Assembly (NCBI GenBank): GCA_965222225.1 | Contig: CBDCTK010000002.1 | Coordinates: 2,368,001 to 2,432,000 of the forward strand | Length of the DNA stretch: 64,000 nucleotides | Direction: 5' to 3' | DNA from: Candidatus Poribacteria bacterium | Lineage (GTDB): Bacteria > Poribacteria > WGA-4E > JAJDTR01 | Part shown: positions 1,732-60,369 of the stretch, in pieces | Numbering within the stretch: position 1 is the first letter of the stretch | How the letters are laid out: each line of letters opens with the position of its first letter | Notes under the pieces: generated by a model | Told to the model about the DNA's origin: nothing | Seen by the model: only the letters and a program-made list of their open reading frames with translations | Database searches by the model: none | Position numbers and translations under genes: made by a program

Positions 1732-3546
1732 ATGCAAGCGCCTTCCGCCGACGAAACCATACAACGACTGATTTTCGGTCTATCGGAGCTTGACGAACTC
1801 GGCGAAACCATCATCTCCGGACACGGCAACTTCAGTGTTTCAAGCAGCACCTATCTACGGATGATTCTGGGGACGCTGCAGGTGACGGGGGGCGCCATCC
1901 TGCTGTTCCGCCCGACCGAGAACACGCTCACCATCAAATCGTCGGTCAATGTGCGCGATGAGTCGCTGGTCATTCGGGTGCCGCCCGATCAGATTCCGGG
2001 GTTCTTGGCACATCCATTCATCGACCTGTCCAACCCTCCGGCGGTTCTCCAACCGTTCTTGGAGCAAATCCAATCCCATTTAGATTCGCTTGATGCCCGG
2101 ATTTGGTTCCCGTTAAGGATTCGCGATGAATTTCTGGGCGTAATTAGTCTTGGGGCATTCTTTGATGCGGACAAGATAGAGGATTGGAATCGGGAACTCC
2201 TAAACGTGTTCGCCAACCACACCTCTATTGCAATCGCCTACTCGCAACTGCTGATCAGGAGCCGTGCCGAACGGTTTCGGCTCTTCATGCTCTCCGATAC
2301 CGCGACCCAAATCTGCAAATCACTGGACACGGAGGCGGTGCAGGAGGAAGTGGTGACGCATGTAGTCTCGCTTTTGGACGCAAACGCCGGGGAACTGCTG
2401 CGCATCAATCCGACCACGCAGCGTCTGGAAATGAAATCCCTGTTCAGTCTTGAGTCCCAAGCCAATGCTGAACTCAGAAACCTGTCAATTCCGCTAAAGA
2501 CAGATGAGGAATCGCATCCGACGCTGTCGATGTTGTCTGAAGTTGCGACACAGGAGGGGAAACCGCTAATCTGGAACGATGAAGACAAGGCAGCAATCCT
2601 TGGACACAGAAACCTCATCGCGGTGCCGATGCGTGGACGCGAGGAAATACTCGGCGTCTTGGTCGTCGCCGACAAGGTAGGCAGGAGCGGCGTCACGCTC
2701 GATTTTACCGACGGGGACAGGATTCTGCTTGAAGCCTTCGCCAATCAGGCGGGGGTCGCCATTGAAAACGCCTACCTTTATCAAGAGGCGCTGGAGGCGC
2801 GCCAATTGCAAGCGGAGATGGCGGAGGCGGAGAAAATCCAGCAAAATCTGATTCCCGACACGCTACCCGAGATTCCCGGCTATGAGGCGACCGGGCTTTA
2901 TCAACCCCGCGGCGGCGTCGGAGGCGACTATTACGATTGCATTCCTGAATCAAACGGCATGTGGGGACTCGTCATCGCCGATGTCTCCGGCAAGGGGATG
3001 CAGGCGGCGCTGCTGATGGCAACCCTGCGAGCCGGGGTGCGTTCCGAGGCGACGCGGAAAACGGATTTGCCGAGCATGGCGTTAATCCTCAACTCACTGC
3101 TGAATGCCAGCGGCACCTTCGGCAAATTTGCGACCTTCTTCTATGCTCAGTTACAGACCGAAACCGATCAGGTGACCTCCATCAACGCCGGCCACAACGA
3201 CCCGATGGTCATTCGGAGCGATGGAAGTTGTGAATCGCTGAAAAAAGGCGGGGTGATGCTCGGGATATTCCCCGACGACATGATCGCAAAAATGCCGCCA
3301 TTCGAGCAGGAAACCACGCAACTCGCCAGTGGGGACATCATTCTGTTCTACACCGACGGAGTCACCGAAACCACGAATATCCACGACGAATTTTACGGAG
3401 AGACTCGGTTGCAAGCGACCGTGACACGCCTTCGAAATGAAAGCGCCGATACAATATGCCAATCCATATACAATGAGGTCATCGAATTTCAGGGCGAAGC
3501 CGAGCAGTACGACGACCTGACGCTAATGGTTCTCAAGAAAAAATAA
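1732..3546 (+). CDS. GAF-GAF-SpoIIE/PP2C phosphatase (RsbU-like)
   Basis: VGGDYYD, IADVSGKG, NAGH, YTDGVTE and DDLTL PP2C motifs; two GAF-like N-terminal segments. Confidence 0.92.
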   Translation: MQAPSADETIQRLIFGLSELDELGETIISGHGNFSVSSSTYLRMILGTLQVTGGAILLFRPTENTLTIKSSVNVRDESLVIRVPPDQIPGFLAHPFIDLSNPPAVLQPFLEQIQSHLDSLDARIWFPLRIRDEFLGVISLGAFFDADKIEDWNRELLNVFANHTSIAIAYSQLLIRSRAERFRLFMLSDTATQICKSLDTEAVQEEVVTHVVSLLDANAGELLRINPTTQRLEMKSLFSLESQANAELRNLSIPLKTDEESHPTLSMLSEVATQEGKPLIWNDEDKAAILGHRNLIAVPMRGREEILGVLVVADKVGRSGVTLDFTDGDRILLEAFANQAGVAIENAYLYQEALEARQLQAEMAEAEKIQQNLIPDTLPEIPGYEATGLYQPRGGVGGDYYDCIPESNGMWGLVIADVSGKGMQAALLMATLRAGVRSEATRKTDLPSMALILNSLLNASGTFGKFATFFYAQLQTETDQVTSINAGHNDPMVIRSDGSCESLKKGGVMLGIFPDDMIAKMPPFEQETTQLASGDIILFYTDGVTETTNIHDEFYGETRLQATVTRLRNESADTICQSIYNEVIEFQGEAEQYDDLTLMVLKKK

Positions 3547-3559
3547 TCTTGTAGGGTGC

Positions 3560-3774
3560 GATCAACCGAGCGATTAGTTGTAGGGTGGGCACTGCCCACC
3601 ATCTCCTTTTGAGCAGGTTGCTTGTTAGGTGAGATCTGCGATCGTCAAATCACCGATTCTCCCCCTTACCGCCCACCATTTCTCTTGTAGGGTGCGATCA
3701 ACCGACTGATTAAGGAGGGCGATAGAGATCCACTGCGATCAAAGGAATGAATAATGACTGCGATAGAAAATCCT
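3560..3774 (+). repeat. Cluster of ~37-nt GATCAA..GCGATAG..TCYY hairpin elements inserted in REP palindromes
   Basis: Partial copy at 3560; full copies 3696-3731 and 3737-3774 sit at the two GCGC sites of tgtagggtgcgcactgcgcaccagcc; related empty REP tgtagggtgggcactgcccacc at 3579-3600. Confidence 0.85.
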
Positions 3775-3842
3775 ACCAGCCTTTTATTGTAGGCTGGGTA
3801 TCGCCTTCCAATCGAACCTCGCAATATCAAAAACATAAATAT

Positions 3843-4769
3843 ATGAATACACCACACACAACCACCCCAAACAAAATCAAACCCTCCTTCTCCGGTCACG
3901 AAACCTTCCCGTTTCGCTACACCTGGCTGAAGAAAGGCGTCGACGCCGTGATGGACGACCCAGCCGTTTTCACTAGCGACCGATCAACAATCACCCTCGG
4001 CGTCGGGAAAAACATGGTGCGCTCCATCCGCCACTGGTGCAACACAGCCGGGCTCATTCAAGCGGGGGACGATCGCACCCGATTAGAGCCGACCAACCTC
4101 GGAAGAGCCATCTTTGCCGATGACGGATTCGACCCGTACCTTGAGGACAGTGCAACCCTGTGGCTCATCCACGCGCAGCTTGCGGCAAACGCCAACCGAG
4201 CGACCACATGGTACTGGGCGTTCGGGTTCTTCAATCAGAGCGAGTTTAGAAAGGAGAGATTCACCTCCGAATTGCTCAATTGGACTGAAAAAACCGGATT
4301 GAAGCGAACCTCGGACAATTCGATTAACCGGGATGTCGATTGTTTTCTTCGGACGTACGTCCCCTCCCGCATGACGAAGGGTACGATGATAGAGGATTCC
4401 TTCAACTGTCCGCTCGTGGAATTGGGCCTTATCTCCGATTCATCCGACGGATTCACCTACCAATTCCACCGTGGAGCCAAACCTTCACTGCCGACTCCGG
4501 TTTTCGCCGCCGCTCTGTCCCGATTTTGGGGGTCCCACAATTCATCAAGAAACTCACTCGCATTGGCGGAAATCGCTTATTCACTGGAAAGTCCGGGACA
4601 AATTTTTAAGCTAGACGAGGACTCCGTCGTCGGTTATCTTGAGGAGCTCGAAAATCTAACGGATGGCGCCCTACGCTACGACGAAACGACGGGACTCAAA
4701 CAAGTGTACCGGGATGGAGGCATTGACGAAATCGAGCTACTTCGCAACTATTATAGACAATCCTCGTGA
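3843..4769 (+). CDS. sspB: DUF4007 protein, SspB-like (phosphorothioation-associated)
   Basis: FSGHETFPFRYTWLKKG, LGVGKNMVRSIRHW, DPYLED..TLWLIH and CPLVELGL motifs; ATG 3843 preferred because the ORF extension from 3747 starts inside a repeat. Confidence 0.85.
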   Translation: MNTPHTTTPNKIKPSFSGHETFPFRYTWLKKGVDAVMDDPAVFTSDRSTITLGVGKNMVRSIRHWCNTAGLIQAGDDRTRLEPTNLGRAIFADDGFDPYLEDSATLWLIHAQLAANANRATTWYWAFGFFNQSEFRKERFTSELLNWTEKTGLKRTSDNSINRDVDCFLRTYVPSRMTKGTMIEDSFNCPLVELGLISDSSDGFTYQFHRGAKPSLPTPVFAAALSRFWGSHNSSRNSLALAEIAYSLESPGQIFKLDEDSVVGYLEELENLTDGALRYDETTGLKQVYRDGGIDEIELLRNYYRQSS

Positions 4770-4783
4770 CAGCTGTAGAGTGA

Positions 4784-4974
4784 GATCAGGCGACTGAATA
4801 AGGATCAAACGAGTGGATAGCGAGTGCGATAGCTAATCCCGCGCGATAGCGTTCCCATAGAAATCCCATAGAAATTCCGTGAATCCCAACACCTGTAGGA
4901 GCGATCAACCGACCGATCAACTGAGTGGATAACGAAGGATCAAGCGAATGAATAATGAGTGCGATAGAGATCTT
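4784..4974 (+). repeat. Nested GATCAA hairpin elements
   Basis: Copy 4803-4840 nested in copy starting 4784, then stacked 3' tails; stacked 5' starts at 4903-4937 and full copy 4938-4974. Confidence 0.85.
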
Positions 4975-5054
4975 CACAGGTTGCATAGCATCAGAAACCG
5001 CTGCCGACTTTTTTAATCGTCAACCAAAAAGCCCAGATGGTTACAATCTCTTCC

Positions 5055-5120
5055 CCTCTTCTTCAACGCTCGATCAACATCGTCTGTTATCCCGCTTAAA
5101 TGTACAAAGTCGAGCTCAGA
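5055..5120 (+). repeat. ~65-bp dispersed repeat (…ccgcttaaatgtRcaaagtcgagct…)
   Basis: Diverged direct copy at ~39370-39435. Confidence 0.6.
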
Positions 5121-5427
5121 ATCCGTTTGGAAAATAGGTGGCAAAAGTATCTTTGATTGTTTGAGGAAGCACTTTGTCGCGTTTCTGTCGTCACCCGTCA
5201 TATTTCTGTCGCCCCGCTGGGGCTTAAGTACATGGGAATTAGGCGTTACTATACATCTTTCGCACCGCTGGTGCTTTCAGTAGTAGGGCGGATCGGAAAT
5301 CATCAAATCCCCGATTTCCCCTCTTATTGCCCACCATCTCTCAACAACGCATTGGTAGTAGAGGGCAACAATCGTTGCCCCTGCTGTTGTACGTACGAAT
5401 CCAACGCCCGTCGGACTGGATCAACGG

Positions 5428-6561
5428 TTACGCCTCGCCGAAGTAGCCGTATCCGGGCATCAGATGTTCCCTCGCAACCTCTTCGTTCAGTTCAACCCCT
5501 AATCCCGGCTGGTCGGGCACCACAAAAGCGTTATCCTGAATGAGCGGTTCCTTGGAAACCGCCAAATCCCATCGCCACGCCACCTGATCCGCGTGATACG
5601 GGAGTTCCATGACGATGAAATTCCGTACCGCGGCACAAACGTGCGCCGACGCTGTCATCCCGATCGGCGATGTGATATTGTGTGCGGCAAACGGCATATA
5701 ATACAAATCCGCCAGATCCGCAATCCTCTTTGCCTCCAGTATCCCTCCCGTTCCGGACACATCGACGTGAAGCATGTCGCAAGCCTGTGTCTGGATCAGA
5801 TCTCTGAAACCGTCTCGACGAAACAAAAACTCACCGGTACAGATTGGGATAGAAGTCGCGGCGCTTACCTTCGCCATCGCTTCGACATTATCGTTCGGCA
5901 CAGGGTCCTCCAAAAACATCAAATTGAACGGCTCCAAACATTCGGCAAGTTTCATAGCCGCGTGCACGCTGAATAGACTATGACAGTCGATGCTGATATC
6001 GATCTCATCGCCGACCGCCTCTCGCGCGGCGGCAACTAACGATGTCATTTTTCTCAACTCCGCCGAACTCAATTCCCGATTGACCGCATCCTGCTTGAGT
6101 TCGTTTGCGGAGTTATCAATGTCAAACTTGATCGCTTGGTAGCCGTCTTGGACACCTTCTCGCGCTCGCTGCGCCCAACCCTCCGGCGTGTTTCCCTCTC
6201 CATGCCCAACATCGGCATAGAGTCGAATACGCTCCCGATACCTCCCGCCCAACAACTGATAGACCGGCACGCCGAGGCTTTTTCCAAGCAAATCCCACAA
6301 CGCGGTTTCTATCCCGCCGATAGCCGATAAACCCCTCCCATATCGGTTGTTCACGGAACCAATCAGCCGGTTGTACAACGGCTCTATATTTCTCGGATCC
6401 GTTCCAACGAGCGTATTCCTGAATTGCAGGATAATTTCGGCGATTCCCGCCCCGGGATGCGCCTCTCCCAACCCCGTCAATCCCTCGTCGGTCTCAATCC
6501 GAACGTAGTTCCACTGTTTGTACCCTTTTAACGTCAAAGCCTTCACATCGGTAATTTTCAC
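5428..6561 (-). CDS. Mandelate racemase/muconate lactonizing enzyme family (galactonate dehydratase-like)
   Basis: VRIETDEG..GLGE, ALWDL.GK..GVPVYQLLGG, K.D, D.H, EDP, TGE and HN motifs; GTG start at 6561 with AGGAGGAG SD. Confidence 0.9.
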   Translation of the reverse strand: MKITDVKALTLKGYKQWNYVRIETDEGLTGLGEAHPGAGIAEIILQFRNTLVGTDPRNIEPLYNRLIGSVNNRYGRGLSAIGGIETALWDLLGKSLGVPVYQLLGGRYRERIRLYADVGHGEGNTPEGWAQRAREGVQDGYQAIKFDIDNSANELKQDAVNRELSSAELRKMTSLVAAAREAVGDEIDISIDCHSLFSVHAAMKLAECLEPFNLMFLEDPVPNDNVEAMAKVSAATSIPICTGEFLFRRDGFRDLIQTQACDMLHVDVSGTGGILEAKRIADLADLYYMPFAAHNITSPIGMTASAHVCAAVRNFIVMELPYHADQVAWRWDLAVSKEPLIQDNAFVVPDQPGLGVELNEEVAREHLMPGYGYFGEA

Positions 6562-6668
6562 GCCTCTCCTCCTACAATATACTCGGTCAAAAAGTTCTGT
6601 TAGTGTTGCGTATGTCAAGGATTCATGATAGCATTTCTCCCTGAGATCATGCAACATATGTAACGTGG

Positions 6669-6989
6669 GATCAAGCGACTGAATAGGGAGCGCGATAGTC
6701 TTCCTGTAGGGTGGACACTGCCCACCAGCCTTTGAAAACGCCAGCGGCGATCAAGCGACCAAATAGCGAGTAGGATTTTCTATCGCCCTCCCTATCCGGT
6801 CAGTTAATCGATAGAGATCCCAAGGCGATAGTCCTCCTGTAGGGTGCGATCAAAGGAATGAATAATGACTGCGATAGAGATCCCCTGCGCACCATCCTTT
6901 GAAAACGCCAGCGGCGATCAAGCGAGAGAATAGCGAGTAGGATTTCCTATCGCCCTCCCTATCCGGTCGGTTGATCGATAGAGATTCCC
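6669..6989. repeat. Tandemly duplicated REP + GATCAA-element mosaic
   Basis: Units ~6704-6821 and ~6838-6989, each with a reverse-oriented element (6772-6809, 6939-6976) nested in a forward one; extra copies at 6669 and 6848. Confidence 0.85.
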
Positions 6990-7007
6990 TCAACCAAGGA
7001 ACAAGCT

Positions 7008-8069
7008 ATGACACAAGAGAAACGAAAATGGCGAGTGGCAATTGCCGGTTGTCACCGCATGGTCACACGAACCCCCGGCAGCCATAACTTTGCCGCCGCC
7101 TTCTATTCGGTGCCAGAAGTCCAAGTCGTCGGCGTTTTCGATTTCGGTGCAGAGACCCGCGCCGAGTTTGTGACGTGCTGGCGAGATGCGTGGGGCGAGG
7201 TGACAACCTACGACGATTACGAACGCATGCTGTCCGAGATTCGCCCCGATCTACTATGCATCGCCACCCGCCAAACCATGCACGCCGACCAGATTGAACT
7301 CGCAGTCCAATCAGGCGTCCGCGGAATCCTTTGCGACAAACCCCTCGCCACCAGCCTCGAAGAACTCGATCGAATCAGCGCCGTCTGCCAAGATGTGCCG
7401 CTGCTATTCGCCCTCGATCGACGCTGGTACGCCCGCTACCGCTTTTTGAGGGGGCAGTTGGCTGACGGAATCATCGGTCCCGTTACCAGCATTACCGCCT
7501 ACGGGTTGTCGAACTTGATTAACCACGGCTGCCACTGGTACGATACACTACTCGCGTTAGCCGGTGACGTCGCGCCCGAATGGGTGAGCGGATTCGTTGA
7601 GGACATATCCGGCGAGCCGACGGAATCACGCAAACGGTTAGACCCCTCCGGCAGAGCCCAGATCGGATTATCGAACGGCGTTGTCCTTTACATTACCGCA
7701 GATGGTCGGCATCAAGGCCCCGGCCTGCCCATGAGTTTTGAGGTCGTTGGAGAGAACGGACGCCTTTTCCTGCTAAACGATGCGACGGAAAGTTTCGTCT
7801 GGCACGAGAACGAACCCTCGAATATCCAGCGATTGGAGCTACCCCAAGAAACCGAGCCTTGGCCCGCGGGGCGTGCCATGGTAGAAGACCTAATCAACGC
7901 CGTACACAGCGGCGGGAGGACTGCCTGCGATATAAGAGAGGCGTTCCCAGCCACAGAGATTGGCTTTGCCATTCACCTCTCGGCGAAGCAACAGGGCGCC
8001 CAAATCCAACTCCCCGCAGAAACCAGATCCCTCCAAATCAAGTCGTTTGAGTGGGGATCAACCGAATGA
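7008..8069 (+). CDS. Gfo/Idh/MocA family oxidoreductase
   Basis: VAIAGC Rossmann start, PDLLCIAT..H, ILCDKPLA, HGCHWYD; stop codon lies inside a GATCAA element. Confidence 0.88.
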   Translation: MTQEKRKWRVAIAGCHRMVTRTPGSHNFAAAFYSVPEVQVVGVFDFGAETRAEFVTCWRDAWGEVTTYDDYERMLSEIRPDLLCIATRQTMHADQIELAVQSGVRGILCDKPLATSLEELDRISAVCQDVPLLFALDRRWYARYRFLRGQLADGIIGPVTSITAYGLSNLINHGCHWYDTLLALAGDVAPEWVSGFVEDISGEPTESRKRLDPSGRAQIGLSNGVVLYITADGRHQGPGLPMSFEVVGENGRLFLLNDATESFVWHENEPSNIQRLELPQETEPWPAGRAMVEDLINAVHSGGRTACDIREAFPATEIGFAIHLSAKQQGAQIQLPAETRSLQIKSFEWGSTE

Positions 8070-8255
8070 ATAATGAGGGCGATAGAAATCCCCTCAACTG
8101 AGTGAATAGCGACTGCGATAGAAATCCTGCACCGCTTCCTGTAGGGTGCGCACTGCGATCAAGCGAATGAATAATGAGCGCGATAGAGATCTTACCAGCC
8201 TTTGAGAGTCCCAGCGGGGATCAAGCGAATGAAGAATGAGTGCGATAGAAATCCT
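8056..8255 (+). repeat. Four GATCAA hairpin elements (two in tandem, two in REP-like repeats)
   Basis: Copies 8056-8092, 8094-8128, 8157-8193 and 8219-8255. Confidence 0.85.
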
Positions 8256-8386
8256 GCACCATTTCTTGTTAGGATGCGACCAACGATTATCAAATCCCCG
8301 ATTTCCCCTTTTATTGCCCACCATCTCTCGACTACACATTGACACCTGACCATTACGCGAGAATCCGCCCCCGATCGGAGAAAAAC

Positions 8387-9010
8387 ATGTTATACTACCT
8401 GCGCCGCTCCACGCCGTTCATCGTCCTATACACCCTTGGAGTTGCGCTGATCGGGCACACGACAGGCACCACCCCTGTGGTGAACATCCCCGACGCCAAT
8501 CTCCGGGTACTGCTTGAGATAGCGCTTGACAAGCCCGATGGCGCCGCGATCACAGCCGCCGACATGGCGACTTTGACGGACTTCTCAGCGGCTAGGGGGC
8601 GGATTCGCGATCTGACCGGTCTTGAGTTTGCTGTCAATCTCATAGACCTATCCCTTCGCGAAAACCAAATTTCCGACCTATTACCATTGGCGGGATTAAC
8701 GAATCTGAAAGCCCTTGACCTTGGCGACAACCCATTAGTTGACCTATCTCCCCTCGCGGGATTAACAAAACTTGAATTTCTGGATATCCCCAGATGCGGA
8801 ATATCCGACCTGTCGCCGTTGGGAGGGTTAATGAATCTGGAAAGACTAGGACTTGTGGACAACCGTGTATCTGACGTATCGCCCCTCGTCGAATTAACCG
8901 GTCTGAAAGAGCTGGATCTGCGATCGAACACCCTGAACCCGAAAACAGTCACTACAGACATCCCACGCCTTGAAGCCAATGGTGTGTATGTAGAGCATTC
9001 GAGTAGATGA
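8387..9010 (+). CDS. Secreted internalin-like leucine-rich repeat protein
   Basis: Hydrophobic N-terminus, IPDANLR cap, 22-aa repeats L.L..N.ISDL.PL..LT.L; ATG 8387 after GGAG. Confidence 0.88.
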   Translation: MLYYLRRSTPFIVLYTLGVALIGHTTGTTPVVNIPDANLRVLLEIALDKPDGAAITAADMATLTDFSAARGRIRDLTGLEFAVNLIDLSLRENQISDLLPLAGLTNLKALDLGDNPLVDLSPLAGLTKLEFLDIPRCGISDLSPLGGLMNLERLGLVDNRVSDVSPLVELTGLKELDLRSNTLNPKTVTTDIPRLEANGVYVEHSSR

Positions 9011-12716: not shown

Positions 12717-12789
12717 GATCAACCGAGTGAACAACGATCAAAGGAACGGATAGTGACTGCGATAGAAGATCCCGTGCGATATAGATCCT
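12717..12789 (+). repeat. Nested GATCAA elements in a REP
   Basis: Inner copy 12736-12773 inside an outer copy; the same outer 5' part recurs at 31163. Confidence 0.85.
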
Positions 12790-13155: not shown

Positions 13156-13974
13156 ATGATCGAAAATAGACGCCACATCCTTGGGCTTTCCGGCGGCAAA
13201 GATAGCTCGGCGCTCGCCATTTACATGCGGAGTAGGGTGCCGGAGATGGAGTACGCTTTCTGCGACACCGGGAAGGAACTGCCGGAGACGTATGAATTTC
13301 TCGATCGCTTGGAAGCCTTTCTAGGCAAGAAGATTGAACGGTTAAACGCCGATCGTGACTTTGACCACTGGCTCTCGGTCTTTGGTGGACTGCTCCCGTC
13401 ATCTCAAGTGCGTTGGTGCACGCGCTTGTTGAAAATTAAACCGTTTGAGGAATTCGTGGGTGATGACTTGGCTTACAACTACGTCGCCATACGCGCCGAT
13501 GAAAACCGCGTCGGTTACAAGCCGCTCAAGAACGTTGAGAACCGAAATATCGAACCCAAATATCCGTTTAAGGAAGATGGCATCACCGAGGCGGATGTCT
13601 ATCGGATTCTGGAGGAGAGCGGTCTAGGCTTGCCAGAGTACTACAAGTGGCGGACACGCTCAGGATGCTATTTCTGTTTCTATCAACGCAAAGCCGAATG
13701 GGTTGGATTGATGGAAAAGCACCCCGATCTCTTTGAACTCGCTAAGACTTACGAGAAATTCAACGATGAGACGGGCGAGAGGTATACCTGGAGCCAAAGT
13801 GAAAGTTTGGCAGAACTTTCGGATACCGAGCGGATTGAGCAGATTAAGGACAGTTACGCGAAAGCCATGACGCGGAAGAAAACCTCGCAACCGAATCGTT
13901 CCTTGGTAGAAATTTTCGACGACACGCTTGATGACGAGGATGATGAGGAACCTTGTCTGATTTGCGATTTGTGA
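13156..13974 (+). CDS. sspD: PAPS reductase family protein, SspD-like
   Basis: SGGKDS PP-loop, DTG.E.PETY, RWCT..LK..P, RSGCYFC and C-terminal acidic CLIC; AGGAGGT SD. Confidence 0.85.
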   Translation: MIENRRHILGLSGGKDSSALAIYMRSRVPEMEYAFCDTGKELPETYEFLDRLEAFLGKKIERLNADRDFDHWLSVFGGLLPSSQVRWCTRLLKIKPFEEFVGDDLAYNYVAIRADENRVGYKPLKNVENRNIEPKYPFKEDGITEADVYRILEESGLGLPEYYKWRTRSGCYFCFYQRKAEWVGLMEKHPDLFELAKTYEKFNDETGERYTWSQSESLAELSDTERIEQIKDSYAKAMTRKKTSQPNRSLVEIFDDTLDDEDDEEPCLICDL

Positions 13975-13987
13975 GGACCAAATCAGT

Positions 13988-14581
13988 ATGTTATCCAACC
14001 TACCAGTTAAGCTTGTTCGATACAAACAAATAGCAACATGGAAAGATTGTCAGAATGCGCTCCCGACAGATGAACCTGCTGTTTACGCATGGTTTCAAGA
14101 TTTGACTTTGTCTGAAACTGTTCTTCATTCAGAGGAGAAATTTGTTGATACTATCATGCAGTGGTTTATGAATCCTCAGTCCGAAAAACGAGAAGCTCAT
14201 ATTTCGCCATTCTATGAGGTTGGTATAACAATTAAGTCTAAAAACCTTTCATCAGATAAGGAAGAGGATTTGAGGCAATATGCACACAGAGAAAACACCC
14301 GAAGAGAAATAGGTAGAGTTCTTGAAGCGATGTCCGTTTTTCAATCGCCATTATATATCGGGAAGGCCGATAAACTAGCGGACCGTATATGGGACCATAT
14401 TGATCGCAAGAGTGGTCTGCGTGACCGACTTGAAACAGCTGGTTTGTCTCTTGATAATTGTTTATTAGCCTATGTGCAGATATCCAAAAGCGACGGAGAA
14501 ACTCAAACTTCCTTGGTCAGATTAGTTGAAGATATCATCACAAGACTGTCGCGACCAGGGTTTGTATTACGTATTGGTTAA
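13988..14581 (+). CDS. GIY-YIG-like nuclease
   Basis: PAVYAW...PLYIGKA..L.DRI..H...VEDII....RP motif order of the GIY-YIG superfamily. Confidence 0.65.
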   Translation: MLSNLPVKLVRYKQIATWKDCQNALPTDEPAVYAWFQDLTLSETVLHSEEKFVDTIMQWFMNPQSEKREAHISPFYEVGITIKSKNLSSDKEEDLRQYAHRENTRREIGRVLEAMSVFQSPLYIGKADKLADRIWDHIDRKSGLRDRLETAGLSLDNCLLAYVQISKSDGETQTSLVRLVEDIITRLSRPGFVLRIG

Positions 14582-14604
14582 ATCCAAGAATTAAGGACAG
14601 CATT

Positions 14605-16461
14605 ATGTCAAACAATATACTTGACACTTTCGAGGCGGAAACACAGAATAAATATACACAGGAATTAATCTTTGTTCCGGGTGAATATAGGCTTTCTCAA
14701 ATTGGCACAATACCATATTTTGCTGCAGTTATGCCCCTCCGAGATCTAGTTGATCAAATTTATCTTGTTGAAGACATACCTGAAGAGACAAGGTTTAATT
14801 GGTCCTTAGAAGAGTTGTTCCAACGGGATATCAGCTGGAAAAGAGTAAGAGAAGAACTAGTTGACGGATATCTCAAGAATCATAACAAACTCACCTTCTT
14901 CAACTCATTGACAATTGCGTTGTTACCTAGAAACGGATTAGTGATAGAAGACTCCTACGGCGAAGCAGAATTTTCACCTTCCGGTCGCGGCGAGGGCTGG
15001 AATAGAACTGACGTTGGGAACATCTGCGTTGAGTTTTTGAATTCCGGTGGCATAGGAGTACTTCGATGGAATAAGGACAGGATTTTCCCCGTCGCAATTG
15101 ATGGACAACATCGTTTAGCCGCTTTGAAGGAATATTACAACCAGAGGCGGGAGAATACAGCACCGAATTCCCCTGAATTTAACACGAAGATCCCGCTTAT
15201 CTTTTTGATTCTTGACCAACGACTTGGATTCGAAGGGAGGCCTGAAGACTCTCTAATACGAACACTCAGAGAAATCTTTATAGATTTGAACAAAAACGCC
15301 AAGGAAGTACCAAATTCTAGAGTTATACTTCTTGAAGACCAAGATATTCAATCCTTGTGTGTTCGTACCTTGCTTGCCAACAAGGCCAAAGATCTTTCCG
15401 CAGATGTCCTGCCATTATCCGTTGTAACATGGCGTCAAGATGAGGCTAAGTTTGATTCGGGTTACAGTTTTACCTCTGTCTTGAATCTTAATGATATTGT
15501 CAGTAATTGCTTTGATCGTGCCTCCCTTCAAGTGGCGGATTTGTTGGAAGAAAGGCGAATAAAACAGTACGTCGATAAAATTAAGGCAAAGCTTCAGTTG
15601 GAGTCTAGTGACCAAGAAAGTATTCAAGAGCTCGTACAATTATGTATTAGTAGACTAGATCCATTCGCTTTCAAGGAAGAGCACTTAAACGCTATTCGGG
15701 CGGCCTTTTGTCAACAATGGGCACCTCATATAGTCAAAGTATTTAAAGAGTTTGAACCTTATAGGAATTACCTTTCAACAGCGCAAGAAATTGGGGCTCT
15801 GGATGGGATGTTATCTGATTATTTACTGCTTCCAATCGAAAAACGCAATACGTTCGAAGATAGAAAGAAAATTGACGACGAAACATTCAATCCTGACATC
15901 GAAATTGAGGCTCCCCTCAAAAAATTGGAAAATTTGAAATTGAACGAGTGGGCGTTTCAAGTTGTATTTCAAAAGGCGCTTTTTATCAATCTCTTTGAGC
16001 TGGAGCCGCAAGCGTCATCTGTATTTCAGGTCAATGGGAGAGACAATATTGTTACTTGGTGGATTTCTCATCTAAACGAACTTCATCGACAAGGAGTTTT
16101 TCATCTTCATTGGAAGGCCGAAAAGGGAATGGCCGACTTATGGTTAGGGATTGCTAACAATCCTGGTTCGGGGACAATCCAATATTCTCAAGCGGCTGCT
16201 AACCGAATAAGTTCCTTCATTACGATTTGCATTTATTTTAAGCACAGCGATTTAACGCTGAATGTAGACGAGTTTGCGAATTCCCTGATGGATGATAGTG
16301 ACACACTTCCAGCGCTAGTAAAAAATGCTTTCAGTAGGGTCAAGGCAGGATTAGAATCCTTAGTAAAAGCGATGACGTCTTCTGATGAGATTGATGAGGA
16401 AACATTGGATCGAGATGTGAAATCGCACCTTGTAAAACGGCTCAATCCACTTCGAGGTTGA
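14605..16461 (+). CDS. DGQHR-domain (DndB-like, ParB/Srx fold) protein with long C-terminal extension
   Basis: LFQRDI, IDGQHRLAAL and REIFIDLNKNAK motifs; 618 aa; visibly AT-rich. Confidence 0.85.
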   Translation: MSNNILDTFEAETQNKYTQELIFVPGEYRLSQIGTIPYFAAVMPLRDLVDQIYLVEDIPEETRFNWSLEELFQRDISWKRVREELVDGYLKNHNKLTFFNSLTIALLPRNGLVIEDSYGEAEFSPSGRGEGWNRTDVGNICVEFLNSGGIGVLRWNKDRIFPVAIDGQHRLAALKEYYNQRRENTAPNSPEFNTKIPLIFLILDQRLGFEGRPEDSLIRTLREIFIDLNKNAKEVPNSRVILLEDQDIQSLCVRTLLANKAKDLSADVLPLSVVTWRQDEAKFDSGYSFTSVLNLNDIVSNCFDRASLQVADLLEERRIKQYVDKIKAKLQLESSDQESIQELVQLCISRLDPFAFKEEHLNAIRAAFCQQWAPHIVKVFKEFEPYRNYLSTAQEIGALDGMLSDYLLLPIEKRNTFEDRKKIDDETFNPDIEIEAPLKKLENLKLNEWAFQVVFQKALFINLFELEPQASSVFQVNGRDNIVTWWISHLNELHRQGVFHLHWKAEKGMADLWLGIANNPGSGTIQYSQAAANRISSFITICIYFKHSDLTLNVDEFANSLMDDSDTLPALVKNAFSRVKAGLESLVKAMTSSDEIDEETLDRDVKSHLVKRLNPLRG

Positions 16462-17011
16462 AGATTCCTCCTGTTTAAAGAGCCGTCAGAAAATTACTGA
16501 GATGGACCACCATAGATTTGATTCGCAAACCAATTTACGGAGGATATGTAGAGATAGTTAACCCAAGTTCCCTCCTTTGTCCGACAGGGGCACAGAAACC
16601 GAGCTAATTCCGACGTGAAAACACGAGATTGACGAAAATCAGGCCAATATACCTTTAATTTAGCGAACGTGGACCAAAAACTCGGTTTCTCTGTTATAGG
16701 TAGTAACTTGCGTTAAGTAATTTAAAGCCTACCTCTGTTCCTGTCCTTTGATACGAGCCATGGTGACACATTCTTTTTTGGGCAGCAGGACCTTACCTAG
16801 GAGAACAAAAGTTCCCCCACGGGCGTTGCGGCTCTATTTCAAACGCAGCACCGTAGACAAACACCTAGATTACTTTTGGGACTTAGTAGTTAACTGCTTT
16901 TTGGTCGATTTGCTTGCTTTTCTCTTCTTAATGTACAATAACTTTAGACAGTGTTCGGAATCTTGATTCACACTAAAATACATCTCTATAAGAGAGAAAT
17001 GGAGGCATATC

Positions 17012-17134
17012 ATGTTGACCAAGCGTTTGTACATGCTCGCGGGAGCATTGCGGGTTATCTGCGGGATTTTAATTTCCAACACTATGGGATTTTCAGCACA
17101 CCATGATGTTGTCGTTGACAGAATATACCGATAG
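17012..17134 (+). CDS. 40-aa hydrophobic mini-ORF inside the IS, convergent with the transposase
   Basis: MLTKRLYMLAGALRVICGILISNTMGFSAHHDVVVDRIYR; GGAGG 6 nt upstream; TTGCTT-18-TACAAT at 16910-16939; also open in copy 2 (42929-43051, -). Confidence 0.4.
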   Translation: MLTKRLYMLAGALRVICGILISNTMGFSAHHDVVVDRIYR

Positions 17135-17152
17135 CCAAACAATTCATGTGGC

Positions 17153-18007
17153 TCAGGTGAAGCATTCATCAAAAAATCTTATGAAAATCTCATCATCTTT
17201 TCTGCGATTATATTTCCAGCAAGACTCCATGATATACAGTGGCAGCCACTTCTTGCTGTAGTGATGATGCGTTCCGTAGAATGACCTCTTGACACAAGCC
17301 CAAAACGACTCGATGGTGTTGGTGTGAGTTACGCCGTCCTCAGAAACATATCTCTCTTGGTGATGGATAACATGTCTTTCGATATCTTCGTCCAGACTAT
17401 TGTAAGAGCGAAATTCATCAGTCATAAGAATAGACTCATCGGGTGAGACATTGCTAAGGATGAATTCTCTGATATTTTCACCAGATAGAACCTTCATGAA
17501 TTTAGCAACCACCCGACCGCCTCTCTCGACTACGCCGATGACGGGAGATTTATTTGTGCCTCTACCTCTCTTAGATTTTGCTCTGGGTTTGCCGCCGACA
17601 TAGGTTTCGTCCGCTTCAACTATCCCTTTCAGCAATTCATCACTATCACTCATTTTCTCACGGAGGCGCATTGCCATATACCAAGCGGACTTTTGATTCA
17701 TGTCCAAGTCACGAGCAAGCTGACAACTCGATATGCTTTTCTTGGCATTGGAAAGAATTGAGATAGCCAAAAACCATTTCTGGAGAGGTATCTTGGTACC
17801 ATGGAAGATGGTTCCTGCTGTAGCCGAAAAGCTAGATTCACAATCGTAGCAATTCCAACCAGTAGTAATGTCGTTTTTGTTCTTGCGTCCAACTTTTTCA
17901 CTGCCACAGTGGATACAGCAAACACCGTCCTTCCAACGTTTTTCCTCTATAAATCTGAGACAAGATTCTTGATTTGGAAACTCTTTCATAAGATTCAAAA
18001 TGTCCAT
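17153..18007 (-). CDS. IS1595 family transposase (Zn ribbon + DDE)
   Basis: C..C...C..C Zn ribbon, TIFH.TK.PL..WF, VEADETY, TDE and HTNTIES.W...KR motifs. Confidence 0.95.
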   Translation of the reverse strand: MDILNLMKEFPNQESCLRFIEEKRWKDGVCCIHCGSEKVGRKNKNDITTGWNCYDCESSFSATAGTIFHGTKIPLQKWFLAISILSNAKKSISSCQLARDLDMNQKSAWYMAMRLREKMSDSDELLKGIVEADETYVGGKPRAKSKRGRGTNKSPVIGVVERGGRVVAKFMKVLSGENIREFILSNVSPDESILMTDEFRSYNSLDEDIERHVIHHQERYVSEDGVTHTNTIESFWACVKRSFYGTHHHYSKKWLPLYIMESCWKYNRRKDDEIFIRFFDECFT

Positions 18008-18182
18008 AGCAAACTCCTACGAGAAGAATAGTCACTATGGACATCTACGTGTGACGAAAAGATTTACGACAGGGTACCAAGTTTTATGTTTGTCGTCAGT
18101 CTAAAAGCTACAAGCTACTAATTCCGTTACTTTTTCAATAACTGAAGCAAGATGTAGCATCTCCATACCTAGCAAATCAATT

Positions 18183-18758
18183 ATGAAAAACTTATTGATA
18201 AAAGACGCAAATGAGATACATTCATGCCCATCCAAGTATGAAACATACCGTCGTAATATAGAAAAAGTGGAATATAAGAGATTTTGCCTGACTGAAGCGC
18301 AGTTTAATCACTTAGTTTTCATGGAAGCTAATGACACCGTTTGGGACAAAAATCAGGCACTGGTTAATAAGCTAACTCCCGAAGGTCAGCCCCGCACGCT
18401 CAAAGCCGTAACGGAGAGAATTGTGAAGGAATATCCTCATGATTCGCCTATCAACGTCTTTAAGCATCTGTCTGAGGATGAGCCGTGGTTTGACGGATGT
18501 TTTATTGTGAGTGCTCGATTCGATCATCGTTTACTGGGGGAATTGAAGATTAGGCCCTTGACTCACTGGGAGAAAAAGCATTCCCCTGAAGATTCATTTT
18601 ATCTTGAGGACGGGAATCACAGGGCCTTGGTTTATTCTGTTTTCCTTCAATTAGGGGCCTCAAAAGAATATGAATCTGCGTACGCAGTTTGGAGCCTAGA
18701 TTGGGAGCATATTTATCCATGGGCACGGGTGTCCCAAAACAGTCAAAAGGAATACTAG
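18183..18758 (+). CDS. Hypothetical protein with ParB/Srx-like DGNHR motif
   Basis: 191 aa; FYLEDGNHRAL. Confidence 0.6.
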   Translation: MKNLLIKDANEIHSCPSKYETYRRNIEKVEYKRFCLTEAQFNHLVFMEANDTVWDKNQALVNKLTPEGQPRTLKAVTERIVKEYPHDSPINVFKHLSEDEPWFDGCFIVSARFDHRLLGELKIRPLTHWEKKHSPEDSFYLEDGNHRALVYSVFLQLGASKEYESAYAVWSLDWEHIYPWARVSQNSQKEY

Positions 18759-19848
18759 TGGACACAATCACTGGTTTCATTCGCCATCGTTCCCTACAAT
18801 GCCGATTATCAAGAAAATAACAGTGCGCGAGAGCTAGCTTTACACTCCTCAGTTGATCGCACTAGCTTCCCACCCAATCCCGCGAGCCGACGCTAACCCA
18901 TCCTAGAAGAACACCCGAGAAGATATAGGCTTGCCAATGGCATGAACTGTGTCTTGTTCGCAGGACGTGTCAACCCATACCAGCAGCCCTAGCCGTTAAT
19001 CTCTGTATTATTGCATTAGACATCTTTCCAAAATATCTCTTTGTAGGTACGGTAATCTTGCTGATTAGAATAGCTATACTGTTTGCCGCCTTGTCGAGGA
19101 ATGTCTCACGTTAACAATTATGGCAATCACATTCCATGTTTTCTCATAGTTGCGAGTTTGCCTCGATAGATGTCTTTGGTGATGCGAGACATCTTACACC
19201 GTCTGACAATATGCTCAATGGCAACCACTTCGTGTTGTCAACTTTCGGTGGCATGGCTTCGCCCGCTGAGTCAAGCGCTTGCTCCGATATTCCTTGATGG
19301 GCGTCGAACTGTTGGCATACAGTTTGGCTATGCCCTGATAACCACTGAAAGAAAACTTCCCTTGCCTCCCGCAACTCGTTACTTTTAGATTGAAAACTTA
19401 ACAGTTGTGGAGTATATTGTAACAGACCATGACAAACCGTCATGGCGACGGAACTTTTTTTCTGTTAGCATTACGATTCCTGAGAACCCGCTCCAGCAAA
19501 AGAATTCTCCATTTCAGAAAATGCTAACGCGCCGCATAAATCAATGCTCGGTTAGCATCTCTTTTCACCGTATCGGTTCAATGAGAAAAAGCGGCACGTC
19601 GCGCAGCAAGCGGAGATCCGAGCGTTCATTGAGGCAGACTCGCAAATCGCCGCAGCCTTGCAAGAGATGACCGATGTCTATTACACCTAAGAGTCGCGCA
19701 TATAGGTCTTACGCAGTTGAATTCGCGTAAAATCGTCAAATTTCGTCAAATTTCGTCAAGTATATACTTGACGTCGGCTGAGATTGCGCTATTTCTCGGC
19801 CAAAATTTGGGCTAATTTGAATGAGTGGCTTTTGAGCATTTCCCCTCT

Positions 19849-20075
19849 GACAAGCGAACGGATAGTGAGTGCGATAGTAAATCCCTCAAGCGAACGGATA
19901 GTGAGTGCGATAGAAAGTCCTGTGCGATAGTAAATCCCTCAAGCGACTGAACAAGGATCAAGCGAACGGATAAGGAGTGATCAACTGACTGGACAAGGAA
20001 GGCGATAGTAATTCCTGATAGCGAATCCCGTGCGATAGAAGATCCTGATAGAGATCCCTCAACTGACTGCATAAT
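19849..20075 (+). repeat. Large tandem/nested array of GATCAA hairpin elements
   Basis: Tandem copies from 19849 and 19886; triple nest 19939-20046 (middle starts 19956, inner 19979-20016). Confidence 0.85.
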
Positions 20076-20245
20076 GACCGGCAAATTCAAGATATCTCAC
20101 GAAGATCATACCGAGCGCATCCGTCGGCGAGTCTACGATGGCTGGACAACCTCGCAAATCGTCGATTCACGCATAGAAAAATACCCGATGTGGAAACATA
20201 TTGACCGCAGCAAATTTATAGACGCATCATTACTTTCTAACCCGC

Positions 20246-20551
20246 GTAACTGTTTAGTGGCTAGTGATTAGTGACTAGCAAAAACCTTAAAGCCGTAAGA
20301 CGTGCAAGGAATTGCATTACTACGAACCTGCAAGCGGAGATTTCGTAGCGCAAAGATCTCTATGGGAGCTCTATCGCACTCACTGTTCGTTCGCTTGATT
20401 ACTCGCTATTCACTCGCTTGATCTGTCAGATTGTGCTTGTGATGCGCAAACTGACAGTTTGCGGTACGGGAGACTTATTCCACAACACTGTAGGACAGGA
20501 CATGAATCTCACTAGTCACTGACCACAAGCCACTGGCCACTAAACACTTAC
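20246..20551. mobile_element. MITE (306 bp)
   Basis: TIRs GTAACTGTTTAGTGGCTAGTG / GTAAGTGTTTAGTGGCCAGTG (19/21); 8-bp TSD TAACCCGC at 20238-20245 and 20552-20559; no ORF; contains nested GATCAA elements at 20352-20423 (-). Confidence 0.85.
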
Positions 20552-21029
20552 TAACCCGCTATCCAAGTGCTCCCCAAAAAAGTGGGGTGAAATATACGAG
20601 CGAACTTTAGCGAACTTTAACGAAGCGCGTCGCGCATGGCTTCAAGCCACGCCCGGCAAGGCTTCAAGCGCAATTTCAGAGCTTGTCGAAAAAGTTCGCT
20701 CTAATCTCGACAACGTCACTGTAAACGACACACGCGATCTGCTTGCCGTAGCGCGCTCCATCAACTCCATCGGTGGCTTTTGAGCATGTCATCATGCGAA
20801 TGGACAAGAAGTGCGATAGAGCTCCCCATAGGGTGGGCTGAAGTGAAGACCTTGAAACTTAAAAAGCGCAATTTCTAACCGCGTGAGGTATAACTCAATG
20901 AGCGCACAGAACTCGGGTACCATCGGAGTTCTGACCATTGATGTCATTTCCAAGCCAATTAGAACAAACGTAGATGCCATCAGGCTCCAGGGTTATTTTG
21001 GAAAGATGTCTATTGGAGGTGATACGCGG

Positions 21030-31162: not shown

Positions 31163-31393
31163 GATCAACCGAGTGAACAACGATCAAGCGACTGAATAAG
31201 GAGCGCGATAGAAATCCCGTGCGATAGAGTTCCCCTTGCCCCGCCGCCTTTGCGCGGAGACAAGGCTGCTTATTCCGCTCCACACGAGTTCCTTTACTCG
31301 ATCCACGTAATCAATGCACTTGAATTTTAGAGAAATGGTATAAATCTTGATAGAGGTCCTAGGGCGATAGAAAATCCCGTGTGATAGAGATTC
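31163..31393 (+). repeat. Nested GATCAA elements plus stacked tails
   Basis: Inner copy 31182-31218 inside outer 31163-31234; 3' tails at ~31349-31393. Confidence 0.8.
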
Positions 31394-43185: not shown

Positions 43186-43238
43186 TTTTATAATAAGGTG
43201 AGGGGGTCAAGTAATGCGTGATGCGTAAAATCGGTTAC

Positions 43239-43323
43239 GATCAAGCGAACGATCAACTGAGTGGATAGCGAAGGCGATAGTAAATCCCACAGTGAGTGCG
43301 ATAGAGCTCCCATAGTAAATCCT
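43239..43323 (+). repeat. Nested GATCAA elements
   Basis: Inner copy 43251-43288 in the loop of outer 43239-43311, plus a tail. Confidence 0.85.
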
Positions 43324-55063: not shown

Positions 55064-55288
55064 AGCGAATGAGGAATTGGTTGGGCATAGTTACAACGAT
55101 CTGAAATCTTTCTCAGTAATGAGGTAGCGCAGCTATTACCGGTCATTTGAACCGGGCTTTTCGAGTTTTTGTTGTCACCTGCTAAATACTTGTCGCCGGG
55201 CTGACACTTTCAAAGGCTGGTGCGCCGTGCGCACCCTACAAGAATTGGCACTCTCACAGATTGAATAGCGATTGAGAAGGAGGAATCG

Positions 55289-60253: not shown

Positions 60254-60369
60254 GATCGCCATCATTGTAGGGACAACCTCCTGTGGCTGTCCTAGTGAAT
60301 TGCACAGCACTGGTGCTTTCAAAGGCTGGTGGGCAATGCCCACCCTACATCTCAAGGAAAATATACGCC

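Follow-up and report, generated by a model that had tools for sequence, protein, structure and literature searches.

Within a 64,000-nucleotide stretch of Candidatus Poribacteria DNA (the window), two sequences of fewer than 40 nt lie inside a single repetitive extragenic palindrome (REP) at positions 3686 to 3781, raising the question of what these units are, how they entered the palindrome and what moves them. The window corresponds to C2:2368001-2432000 of the source genome (code G000), an assembly of 5.70 Mb on two contigs with 50% G+C. We suggest that both units are copies of a micro-element, a non-autonomous mobile element of about 37 nt composed of a 30-nt imperfect hairpin and a short A-rich tail, which spreads by polar copy-in on single-stranded DNA (ssDNA), a reading to which we give an even chance of being right. 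It ranks with the smallest bacterial elements that appear to be mobile.

Two micro-elements within one REP palindrome

The original prediction placed two micro-elements within one REP at 3687-3780, and the site reads in this way at the coordinates listed in Table 1. Removing both units and putting GC back twice yields TGTAGGGTGCGCACTGCGCACCAGCC, a palindrome headed by GTAG, with 7 bp in its stem and 3 nt in its loop, here named REP1. The exact 22-nt empty form of REP1 is present in 55 genome copies, and a compensated GGGC/GCCC form in 44. Empty relatives had been proposed at four places in the window and are found at 3579, 6705, 55219 and about 60328, the last two on the reverse strand, and the second REP1 site is indeed filled again at 8157, by a copy with other stem bases. 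REP1 heads on the chromosome are followed by an empty palindrome in 157 cases, by a site-1 junction in 66, by a filled site 2 only in 27, by both in about 11 and by other sequence in 105.

About 1000 copies in the source genome and a range of two genera

The consensus of the micro-element reads GATCAA-NN-GA-NN-GRATA-NN-GA-NN-GCGATAG-A(1-3)RATCC. A pattern anchored on positions 5-30 with at most two mismatches finds 1079 copies in the source genome, and a profile built from 16 window copies gives 1035 genome matches at E < 0.01. Such numbers far exceed chance, given 486 occurrences of the exact 30-nt pattern in the source genome and none of its reversed form in any of 41 genomes. The sequence logo has a sharp left edge at position 1 (G in 88%) and fades past positions 35-37 (Y-C-Y). 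GATCAA, G9 and A10, G13, A15, T16 and A17, G20 and A21 and the GCGATAG motif are conserved, and positions 7, 8, 11, 12, 14, 18, 19, 22 and 23 and the tail are variable. The copies comprise 660 distinct 30-mers, with 45 copies in the biggest identical class, and 344 stem haplotypes.

We counted pattern matches in 176 genomes of the phylum. All 10 genomes of the source genus carry the micro-element (340-855 matches each), as do all 4 genomes of one genus of another family (123-144 matches each), and the other 162 genomes hold 0-13 matches, with 1-13 in six of them. The genomes G066, G146, G010, G125 and G060 were considered as further carriers and set aside, since their matches lie on few small contigs or are single copies, which we read as bin contamination or strays; the 13 matches of G066, for example, sit on four small contigs. 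A public scan with one genome per species returned at least 101 stretches, and among the matches listed all belong to Candidatus Poribacteria. Four carrier chromosomes of 4.7-4.9 Mb keep the 30-nt core and have a TCTT-type tail instead of RATCC. In the smaller carrier genomes, the micro-element often occupies the loop of a GTAGGTTGGGT...ACCCAAC REP or forms inverted pairs that converge.

Rfam 15 gives no match at the gathering score in the whole window, and the sole hit with E <= 5 in the region 3500-8400 is irrelevant. Such repeats are not described in the literature retrieved for Poribacteria combined with REP, or with intergenic, repeats or mobile.

A compensated hairpin selected on one strand

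The conserved core is predicted to form a hairpin with the pairs 2-4/26-28, 7-8/22-23 and 11-12/18-19, a tandem G.A/A.G mismatch at 9-10/20-21 and the loop GRATA. Watson-Crick pairs at 7-23, 8-22, 11-19 and 12-18 are present in 748, 963, 988 and 891 of the 1079 copies, where independence of the two positions predicts 322, 416, 381 and 521, and all four covarying pairs are intact in 879. The mismatches are just as constant, with G.A at 9-21 in 1002 copies and A.G at 10-20 in 1033. Taking the 21 window copies alone, 95.2% of the stem cells are paired compared with 63.6% after shuffling, a level matched by none of 500 shuffles, and controls with slid positions reach 19-56%.

At the stem pairs, G.T or T.G combinations (469) far outnumber A.C or C.A combinations (85), which indicates that selection for pairing concerns the GATCAA strand alone, as a single strand. 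In our reading, the GATCAA...GCGATAG strand is the active single-stranded form. With RNA parameters, five of five plus-strand copies have the identical minimum free energy (MFE) fold, which adds the helix 2-4/26-28 and reads.(((..((..((.....))..))..))) for the first copy of the REP1 site (3696-3731); the excess of T4.G26 (49) over C4.A26 (8) agrees with this helix. The conserved unpaired bases suggest that a hairpin-binding protein is involved, and the hairpin probably needs a protein.

Filled and empty sites

For the source genome, we searched for empty paralogous sites, defined by the 11-nt left and 11-nt right flanks of a copy being found elsewhere in the genome at most 8 nt apart, and obtained 217 filled/empty pairs. 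A target-site duplication (TSD) of at least 2 nt is lacking in 197 of them. The remaining pairs include twelve 2-nt matches (13.6 expected by chance), six 8-nt repeats in tandem arrays, and one 5-nt and one 4-nt repeat that are unexplained. None of the seven orthologous pairs described below shows a duplication either, so the predicted absence of a TSD is borne out.

The micro-element had also been proposed to replace a GN dinucleotide of the host. The first half of this rule is correct, as the absent host stretch begins with G in 201 of the 208 non-empty cases. Its length, however, is exactly 2 nt in only 57 of the 217 pairs, being 0 nt in 9, 1 nt in 21, 3 nt in 80, 4 nt in 34 and at least 5 nt in 16; GCA (28), GCG (26), GC (24), GA (22), G (19) and GG (10) are the most frequent. 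Because the micro-element itself starts with G(A), part of the absent stretch, the G above all, can be read as shared between host and element, and the host bases truly unaccounted for then number 0 in 54 pairs, 1 in 44, 2 in 69, 3 in 32 and 4 or more in 18. The first window copy illustrates this ambiguity, since GGTGCG + ATCAAC...GATC + CACTGC describes a clean 34-nt insertion. In the commoner form at REP1 site 1 (GATCCC + CTGC, as at 6848), CA is lost.

Filled and empty states were furthermore compared between species, with the window set against the syntenic regions of five genomes of the same genus, which are 83-93% identical in the aligned, largely genic blocks. For 7 of the 132 micro-elements in the six syntenic regions, a junction-spanning ortholog is empty and its flanks are free of elements. 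The host sequence GTAGGTGC/GG/TTTCCAACCGCAC is filled at two separate loci (one in G005, one in G001) by different haplotypes and empty in G001/G009 and G009/G008, GTAG/GA/GCGATCTCC is filled in G009 and empty in G008, and GGGTGCG/CAC/TGCGCACC is filled in G002, where the host G is retained too, and empty in G005. One further orthologous case is a TCGATCC-AGA-GGATCGA hairpin without its 3' arm. The empty REPs keep perfect stems, indicating that the filled state is the derived one. In another orthologous event (e62), an older copy had its GACT replaced by nothing but the 23-nt 5' module. This module-only gain and the variability of the tail point to a left junction that is exact and a right junction that is settled loosely.

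In the left flanks of 472 distinct non-nested insertion contexts, G is found at position -1 in 67% and C or G at position 0 in 87%. The original prediction of single-strand transfer at a nick next to G agrees with these data as far as the junction before G and after G-S is concerned, but the ragged right junction and the module-only event fit polar copy-in better. Its argument against DDE transposition and true terminal inverted repeats is supported. Beyond the GATC/RATCC pseudo-inverted repeat there are no inverted ends, with a mutual information of 0.00-0.01 between positions 1-4 and 32-35. As there is also no TSD and no parent insertion sequence (IS) with the same ends, a MITE (miniature inverted-repeat transposable element) moved by DDE cut-and-paste is unlikely. 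Insertion at GATC by a GATC-cutting activity was rejected because the empty sites have no GATC.

The stretch or part of it is present in 20 of the 24 listed public sequencing runs. The k-mer contigs of four runs, three of DNA and one of RNA, are interrupted at the repeats, and their joints link different copies only, so that no empty allele is readable from them. Micro-element sequence is found in the RNA-library contigs, which is not proof of transcription.

Nested copies and mosaics

Micro-elements are inserted into each other. The nested cases proposed at 4803, 12736, 19956/19979, 31182 and 43251 and the inverted one at 6772 all read as described (Table 1), and in the whole genome 316 of the 1079 copies adjoin or break up the 5' half of another copy. 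Outer copies break off at position 17 in 26 cases, at 18 in 18, at 19 in 32 and at 23 in 99, and a bare 5' module stands ahead of 99 copies. For 66 outer copies cut before position 20, we asked whether bases 7-8 match the dinucleotide ahead of the next GCGATAG; they pair in 45, compared with 25.6 +/- 3.0 in shuffles (maximum 36 in 1000). The outer halves thus still pair across the insert, which marks these cases as true insertions into copies that were once intact.

Nesting by itself does not suffice for the mosaic at 24749-24830, in which one 5' module is followed by five 3' pieces. This brings up an explanation without any insertion, in which composite REP families spread as units and are reshuffled by slippage or gene conversion, the micro-element being a mere shared module. 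Besides the unequal numbers of 5' and 3' modules in this mosaic, the bare 5' module ahead of the 99 copies, the recurrence of the doubly filled REP as a unit and the association of haplotypes with sites would be expected from reshuffling. It is at odds with the orthologous loci with unique flanks that are empty in one species and filled in another, the empty stems being intact, with the many different haplotypes at one site, with the pairing of outer halves across the inner copy and with the 465 of 1079 copies that have neither a REP-like nor an element-like context. We therefore consider this explanation very improbable.

The mosaic at 19848-20045 lies, together with an IS copy, in a segment of low G+C (13972-21012, 40-44%) where synteny with each of the five relatives is lost; this segment is probably a variable island.

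Target preference

Apart from the 316 nested copies, 271 of the 1079 lie at most 14 nt 3' of a GTAG, 27 are in tandem and 465 have other contexts. The distance from GTAG peaks at 5, 4, 12 and 0 nt, with 20 of the 1079 copies directly following GTAG, and only 4.9-5.4% of intergenic non-element positions are so near a GTAG. Two arm tests free of paralog ascertainment bias were applied to the 472 distinct non-nested contexts. In the 5'-arm test, the right flank is complementary to the final 5 nt of the left one in 60 of 472 contexts and in 128-145 of 5000 random intergenic N|G junctions, and the 3'-arm-type test shows no enrichment (41/472 compared with 370-396/5000). The claim that the micro-element targets REP palindromes thus holds as a preference, with REP arms enriched about 5-fold, but not as a rule, since roughly one copy in two adjoins or breaks up another copy.

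Hosts are drawn from six or more hairpin repeat families, of which five are GTAG-headed REP families. The host hairpins include REP1, GTAGGAGCGATCTCC..., GTAGGCGGGGCA...GCCCCGC, GTAGGTGCGGTTTCCAACCGCAC, GTAGGTTGGGT...ACCCAAC and GCCCCAGCGGGGCGACAGGTG, which is linked to a REP-associated tyrosine transposase (RAYT). In REP1, insertions on the GTAG strand (79) outnumber those on the other strand (8) despite the palindromic stem. One haplotype accounts for 26 of 60 copies at REP1 site 1, which has also received more than 20 others, and about 20 haplotypes are found among the 23 copies at the REP2 site, suggesting that these sites were hit repeatedly.

Strand bias and turnover of intergenic DNA

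Of 1076 chromosomal copies, 951 lie outside a gene set of crude open reading frames (ORFs) covering 81% of the DNA. Their orientation relative to the flanking genes is nearly even, with 356 same/same, 297 opposite/opposite and 163 and 135 mixed cases. Judged by local GC skew (100 kb), 596 copies (70%) have GATCAA on the C-rich strand and 252 on the G-rich strand, and the bias persists when counted by cluster (377 versus 159, p = 2e-21). It is found in each context (C-rich/G-rich 177/56 after GTAG, 200/70 in nested copies, 219/126 in others), and empty REP1 shows the same bias (95/32). Genes favour the G-rich strand (1732 versus 1328). The G-rich strand is, as a general rule, the leading strand; if this applies here, the active strand lies mostly on the leading-strand template and corresponds to nascent lagging-strand sequence.

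Among ten species of the genus, the spacer orthologous to window positions 3547-3832 ranges from 27 nt (G008) to 791 nt (G004) and contains differing mixtures of at least four small repeat families. These data bear on the possibility that the hairpin is a host-useful motif, namely a binding site at the protein or RNA level that is kept by selection, its abundance then reflecting function and not selfish spread, which would be compatible with any insertion mechanism. Conservation of 95-99% at unpaired positions, with compensated variation at the paired ones (four pairs kept in 879/1079), resembles such a motif, and the copies at one orthologous REP in G003, G004 and G006 share a rare A1 and differ by compensated stem changes. 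The element content of orthologous spacers, on the other hand, differs wildly even between the closest species, there is no bias with respect to gene direction, and the micro-element is missing from most of the phylum, making a host function quite improbable.

A proposed polar copy-in mechanism

The mechanism we propose for the mobile micro-element would act on ssDNA at the replication fork, where a putative hairpin-binding protein would guide either template switching or primed copying. A 3' end halted after G-S, often in a REP arm or in an older copy, would be extended on an element template from G1, giving a left junction that lies exactly before G1, usually after G-C or G-G, at a host position carrying G. 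Synthesis would then rejoin the host a few bases downstream; as this right junction is resolved loosely, 0-3 further host bases would be lost without target duplication. The preferred sites would be DNA prone to single-strandedness, that is, REP hairpin arms and earlier element copies, and insertion into the latter would produce the nested, modular mosaics.

Several observations weigh against this reading. DNA parameters give no stable hairpin (MFE 0 to -1.5 kcal/mol, no better than shuffles), and the RNA folds are weak (-2.7 to -6.9 kcal/mol) with insignificant z scores of -1.15 to +0.45, so that thermodynamics lends no support and the case for the hairpin is one of covariation. A crude test finds no hairpin in 384 of the 472 non-nested contexts, and only 13-25% of the copies lie within recognisable REP arms, about half touching other copies instead. 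The doubly filled REP recurs about 10 times, also at 84-93% identity in G000 and G001, which indicates that filled REPs are copied as composite units and that copy counts overstate the number of independent events. Paralogous empty sites are detectable only in repeated hosts; of orthologous pairs just 7 are readable, 2 of them degenerate or messy, within the roughly 64-80 kb readable in each of the five relatives. If the G-rich strand is the leading one, the strand bias is opposite to that of IS608-type ssDNA elements, the skew map being patchy and origin and terminus unmapped. Finally, among the enzymes tested (RAYT, tyrosine recombinase, IS110 and RVT_1), none matches the distribution of the micro-element.

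Candidate mobilising enzymes

The source genome has five Y1_Tnp matches, and two of the Y1 genes, including the best, are flanked by inverted micro-elements. An HUH/Y1 enzyme of the RAYT or IS200 type could act in trans, cutting ssDNA 5' of G1 and at the tail and pasting the micro-element into a cleaved REP arm without TSD. Such an enzyme would account for the lack of TSDs in the filled/empty pairs, for a hairpin whose single-stranded flanks are conserved and which prefers one strand, and for the insertion peaks 4-5 and 12 nt from GTAG. IS200-type chemistry is exact at both ends, whereas the insertions here cost host bases and have a ragged right junction; these features and the module-only event fit HUH exactness poorly and favour polar copy-in. 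Only G-S is found 5' of the element, with no fixed tetranucleotide. The hosts are GTAG-headed REPs, which are described as RAYT substrates (PMC8266576), yet the best RAYT has a cognate REP of its own and occurs in carriers and non-carriers alike. The strand bias, moreover, would be opposite to the expectation for IS608-type elements as given in PMC6006769 if the G-rich strand is the leading one. An HUH/Y1 enzyme working in trans is thus an unlikely source of the insertions.

The best RAYT gene (C2:3080258-3080728) was rejected as the cognate enzyme for the following reasons. The GCCCCAGCGGGGCGACAGGTG repeat flanks 11 of 13 orthologous copies inspected (not the G008 and G015 loci), and these flanks are shared by carriers and non-carriers. 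This conserved flank is another REP family, merely filled by the micro-element in some genomes of the source genus. The gene is widespread, being present in 102 of the 176 genomes, genera without the micro-element included, and high element copy numbers are found in 14. In the window, a repeat family CTATACACCTGTCGCSCCNCTGGSGC is present at 5197-5275, 28517-28544, 49133-49160 and 53688-53767, and its reverse complement, GCCCCAGCGGGGCGACAGGTGTATAG, flanks this RAYT gene and its orthologues across several genera. The CTATACACCTGTCGCSCCNCTGGSGC/GCCCCAGCGGGGCGACAGGTGTATAG family is probably the cognate REP of that RAYT.

A tyrosine recombinase of 312 aa (Phage_integrase; C2:1313887-1314822) has four paralogs at 460231, 3335598, 3989323 and 4161171 that are 84-90% identical. 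The paralogs share a neighbour gene, and three of the five intervening spacers have gained composites of REP1 and micro-element. This five-copy gene beside the doubly filled REP was discarded as a candidate, as it is found in 70 of the 176 genomes including non-carriers (74-77% identity).

By self-BLAST, we found eight multi-copy families of 0.8-1.3 kb, six of which look like ISs; of the other two, one is a second copy of the IS1595-like family and one a region of the tyrosine recombinase paralogs. The IS labels were read from the proteins by eye, without a family search (IS1595-like, 47 copies; IS4/IS701-like, 24 copies; IS5-like; IS1-like). None of the eight families has ends resembling the micro-element, and its reading as the two ends of an IS was rejected. 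Two of the 47 genome copies of a 1.27-kb IS lie in the window (16866-18136 and 41927-43193); its 284-aa protein has an N-terminal zinc-ribbon-like motif, and from its sequence the IS appears to be IS1595/ISXO2-like.

IS110 was likewise rejected, with no DEDD_Tnp_IS110 match in the carriers G000 and G012, despite their hundreds of micro-elements, and 11 matches in G001. The 11 IS110-family (DEDD) transposase genes of G001 have no counterpart in G000, G012, G018 or G151 and look like a recent IS expansion in one species.

RVT_1, the one reverse transcriptase (RT) family searched, has a 27.5-bit match in G000, a 25.1-bit match in G001 and none in the carrier G012, so these matches do not track the micro-element. 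They bear on a route through an RNA intermediate, in which the hairpin RNA would be reverse-transcribed into nicked DNA, as Elhai et al. (2008, Genome Res 18:1484) are said to have proposed for the small dispersed repeats (SDRs) of Nostoc. That precedent, the tolerance of G.U-type pairs in the stems, the common MFE fold obtained in five of five copies with RNA parameters and in none with DNA parameters, and the element sequence in RNA-library contigs (no proof of transcription) would suit this route. Besides the missing RVT_1 match in G012, it conflicts with the lack of orientation bias relative to flanking genes in the presence of a replication-strand bias. Furthermore, the exact 5' and ragged 3' junctions are the reverse of what target-primed reverse transcription is expected to leave. 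We find the RNA route quite unlikely.

Polar copy-in on ssDNA hence remains our preferred reading. In a more specific version, the micro-element would be a structure-coded hyperparasite of REP hairpins that is copied at the fork by a putative hairpin-binding enzyme through a chemistry that is not DDE, classical HUH, IS110 or RT, and its stem variants would be co-existing lineages with different site preferences; we put this forward tentatively, as a possibility that is more probably wrong than right.

Comparison with known elements

The micro-element is not a MITE, REP/REPIN, IS200/IS605 or IS110 element by the defining properties of these groups, and its closest precedent is the SDRs of Nostocaceae. 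Elhai et al. (2008) reportedly described SDRs with a hairpin showing compensatory changes, in a single lineage and with the enzyme not known. Like the micro-element, SDRs are very small, are nested in their own copies (316/1079 for the micro-element), occupy a precise position in a short palindromic host and have a compensated hairpin. The two are set apart by size and taxon: SDRs are 21-27 nt long and found in Nostocaceae, the micro-element is 37 nt long and found in Poribacteria. SDR5 inserts between the third and fourth bases of HIP1, as described in PMC4390886 and PMC5861425, whereas the micro-element uses REP hairpins, and GCGATCGC is rare here (120 in 5.7 Mb). Host-base loss, a ragged right junction and a replication-strand bias are the features shown here for the micro-element.

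The REP/REPIN-RAYT systems resemble the micro-element in being high-copy intergenic ssDNA hairpins that are strand-specific and lack a TSD (PMC8266576, PMC3733652, PMC3116915), and RAYT is described to cleave ssDNA, form a Tyr-5'P link and perform strand transfer (PMC8266576). The host repeats in this genome are REPs of the usual GTAG-tagged type, and inverted REPs lie on both sides of one RAYT gene. The micro-element, in contrast, has no GTAG tag (it starts with GATCAA), conserved G.A pairs break up its stem, REPs of several families harbour it, and its range of two genera does not track RAYT.

IS200/IS605 elements (IS608, ISDra2) share with the micro-element the lack of a TSD and a hairpin read on one strand, and IS608-type elements are described as hairpin-dependent, single-strand-specific and replication-coupled (PMC6006769). 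They differ in that no tnpA is present within the micro-element or specifically linked to it, no fixed target tetranucleotide exists, the strand bias is towards the C-rich strand and host bases are lost in 163 of the 217 pairs. REP palindromes are also reported as insertion hot spots for ISPpu9, ISPpu10, ISPa11 and ISRm19/22 (PMC1525189, PMC12288879, PMC11208160), but these REP-targeting ISs, of the IS110 family and others, are autonomous, longer than 1 kb and equipped with their own recombinase. MITEs such as Nezha, Correia and Chunjie are, like the micro-element, non-autonomous, intergenic, high-copy and filled or empty between relatives (PMC3184786); they have 100-400 bp, terminal inverted repeats, target duplications and a parent IS, of which the latter three are not found here.

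How repeats of 20-40 nt multiply in bacteria has been an open question since the Nostoc SDRs, and the micro-element is a second case with far richer statistics. They comprise about 1000 copies per genome, a hairpin with conserved G.A pairs supported by covariation, an exact 5' and a ragged 3' junction, host-base loss with no duplication and a replication-strand bias, and the distribution over two genera should let phyletic profiling find the responsible gene. REP palindromes, themselves thought to be mobile, serve as the substrate of a still smaller element. If the hyperparasite reading is true, the micro-element would be a second, independent SDR-type "smallest mobile element" whose junction rule allows the chemistry to be deduced. 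Turnover of intergenic DNA is extremely rapid in these sponge symbionts, and such elements break assemblies, create false start codons and may mislead annotation. The longest ORF of the gene downstream of the REP1 site (3747-4769) begins at an ATG at 3747 within the second micro-element; the orthologous alignment begins only near 3830-3846, so the micro-element supplies a false start codon there.

Features of the window

Table 1. REP1 palindromes and micro-elements read in the window (positions in nt from its first letter).
Position	Strand	Feature	Remark
3550..3578	+	REP1 head fused to a truncated element, GATCAACCGA + GCGATTAGT	Hairpin interior missing
3579..3601	+	Empty REP1, GGGC/GCCC stem variant	Compensated relative to GCGC form
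3686..3695	+	GTAG head and first 5 nt of REP1 5' arm, TGTAGGGTGC	Same head precedes intact palindrome at 3579, 6705
3696..3731	+	Micro-element copy 1, 36 nt, GATCAACCGACTGATTAAGGAGGGCGATAGAGATCC, REP1 site 1	Stem bases CC/GG, CT/AG
3732..3736	+	ACTGC, REP1 loop and start of 3' arm, between the two copies	Compare empty form TGTAGGGTGCGCACTGCGCACC
3737..3774	+	Micro-element copy 2, 38 nt, GATCAAAGGAATGAATAATGACTGCGATAGAAAATCCT, REP1 site 2	Stem bases AG/CT, AT/AT
3775..3781	+	ACCAGCC, REP1 3' arm end and flank	
4784..4855	+	Nested pair: outer 1-19, inner 4803-4839, outer remainder	
6705..6730	+	Empty REP1	
6749..6821	+	Outer 1-23, inverted inner copy (6772-6809), then GATAGAGATCCC	Inner copy replaces GC
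6838..6897	+	REP1, only site 1 filled: GGTGC, 37-nt copy (6848-6884), CTGCGCACC	Host GCA absent
8140..8201	+	REP1, only site 2 filled: ACTGC, 38-nt copy (8157-8194), ACCAGCC	Stem haplotype unlike 3737
12717..12788	+	REP1 head, then nested pair: outer 1-19, inner 12736-12772, outer remainder	
19848..20045	+	Mosaic: tandem pair (joined as ATCC-CT-CAA) ahead of a three-level nest	GATAG/ATAG remainders
31163..31234	+	Same outer copy as 12717, inner copy 31182-31218	Different inner haplotype
43239..43310	+	Copy split in its loop: outer 1-12, inner 43251-43288, outer resuming at ACAGTGAGTGCGATAG	Host GG absent
55219..55240	-	Empty REP1, reverse orientation	
60328..60349	-	Empty REP1, GGGC type, reverse orientation	

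Two further kinds of repeat were seen in the window. A dispersed repeat of about 56 nt (ATCATCAAATCCCCGATTTCCCC..TTGCCCACCATCTCTC), unrelated to the micro-element, is found at 3641-3696, 5299-5354 and 8286-8341 with 70-91% identity. The segments 49542-50192 and 52474-53127, 2.9 kb apart, and 31750-32053 and 33106-33409, 1.36 kb apart, are 71-77% identical and are probably tandem paralogous genes.

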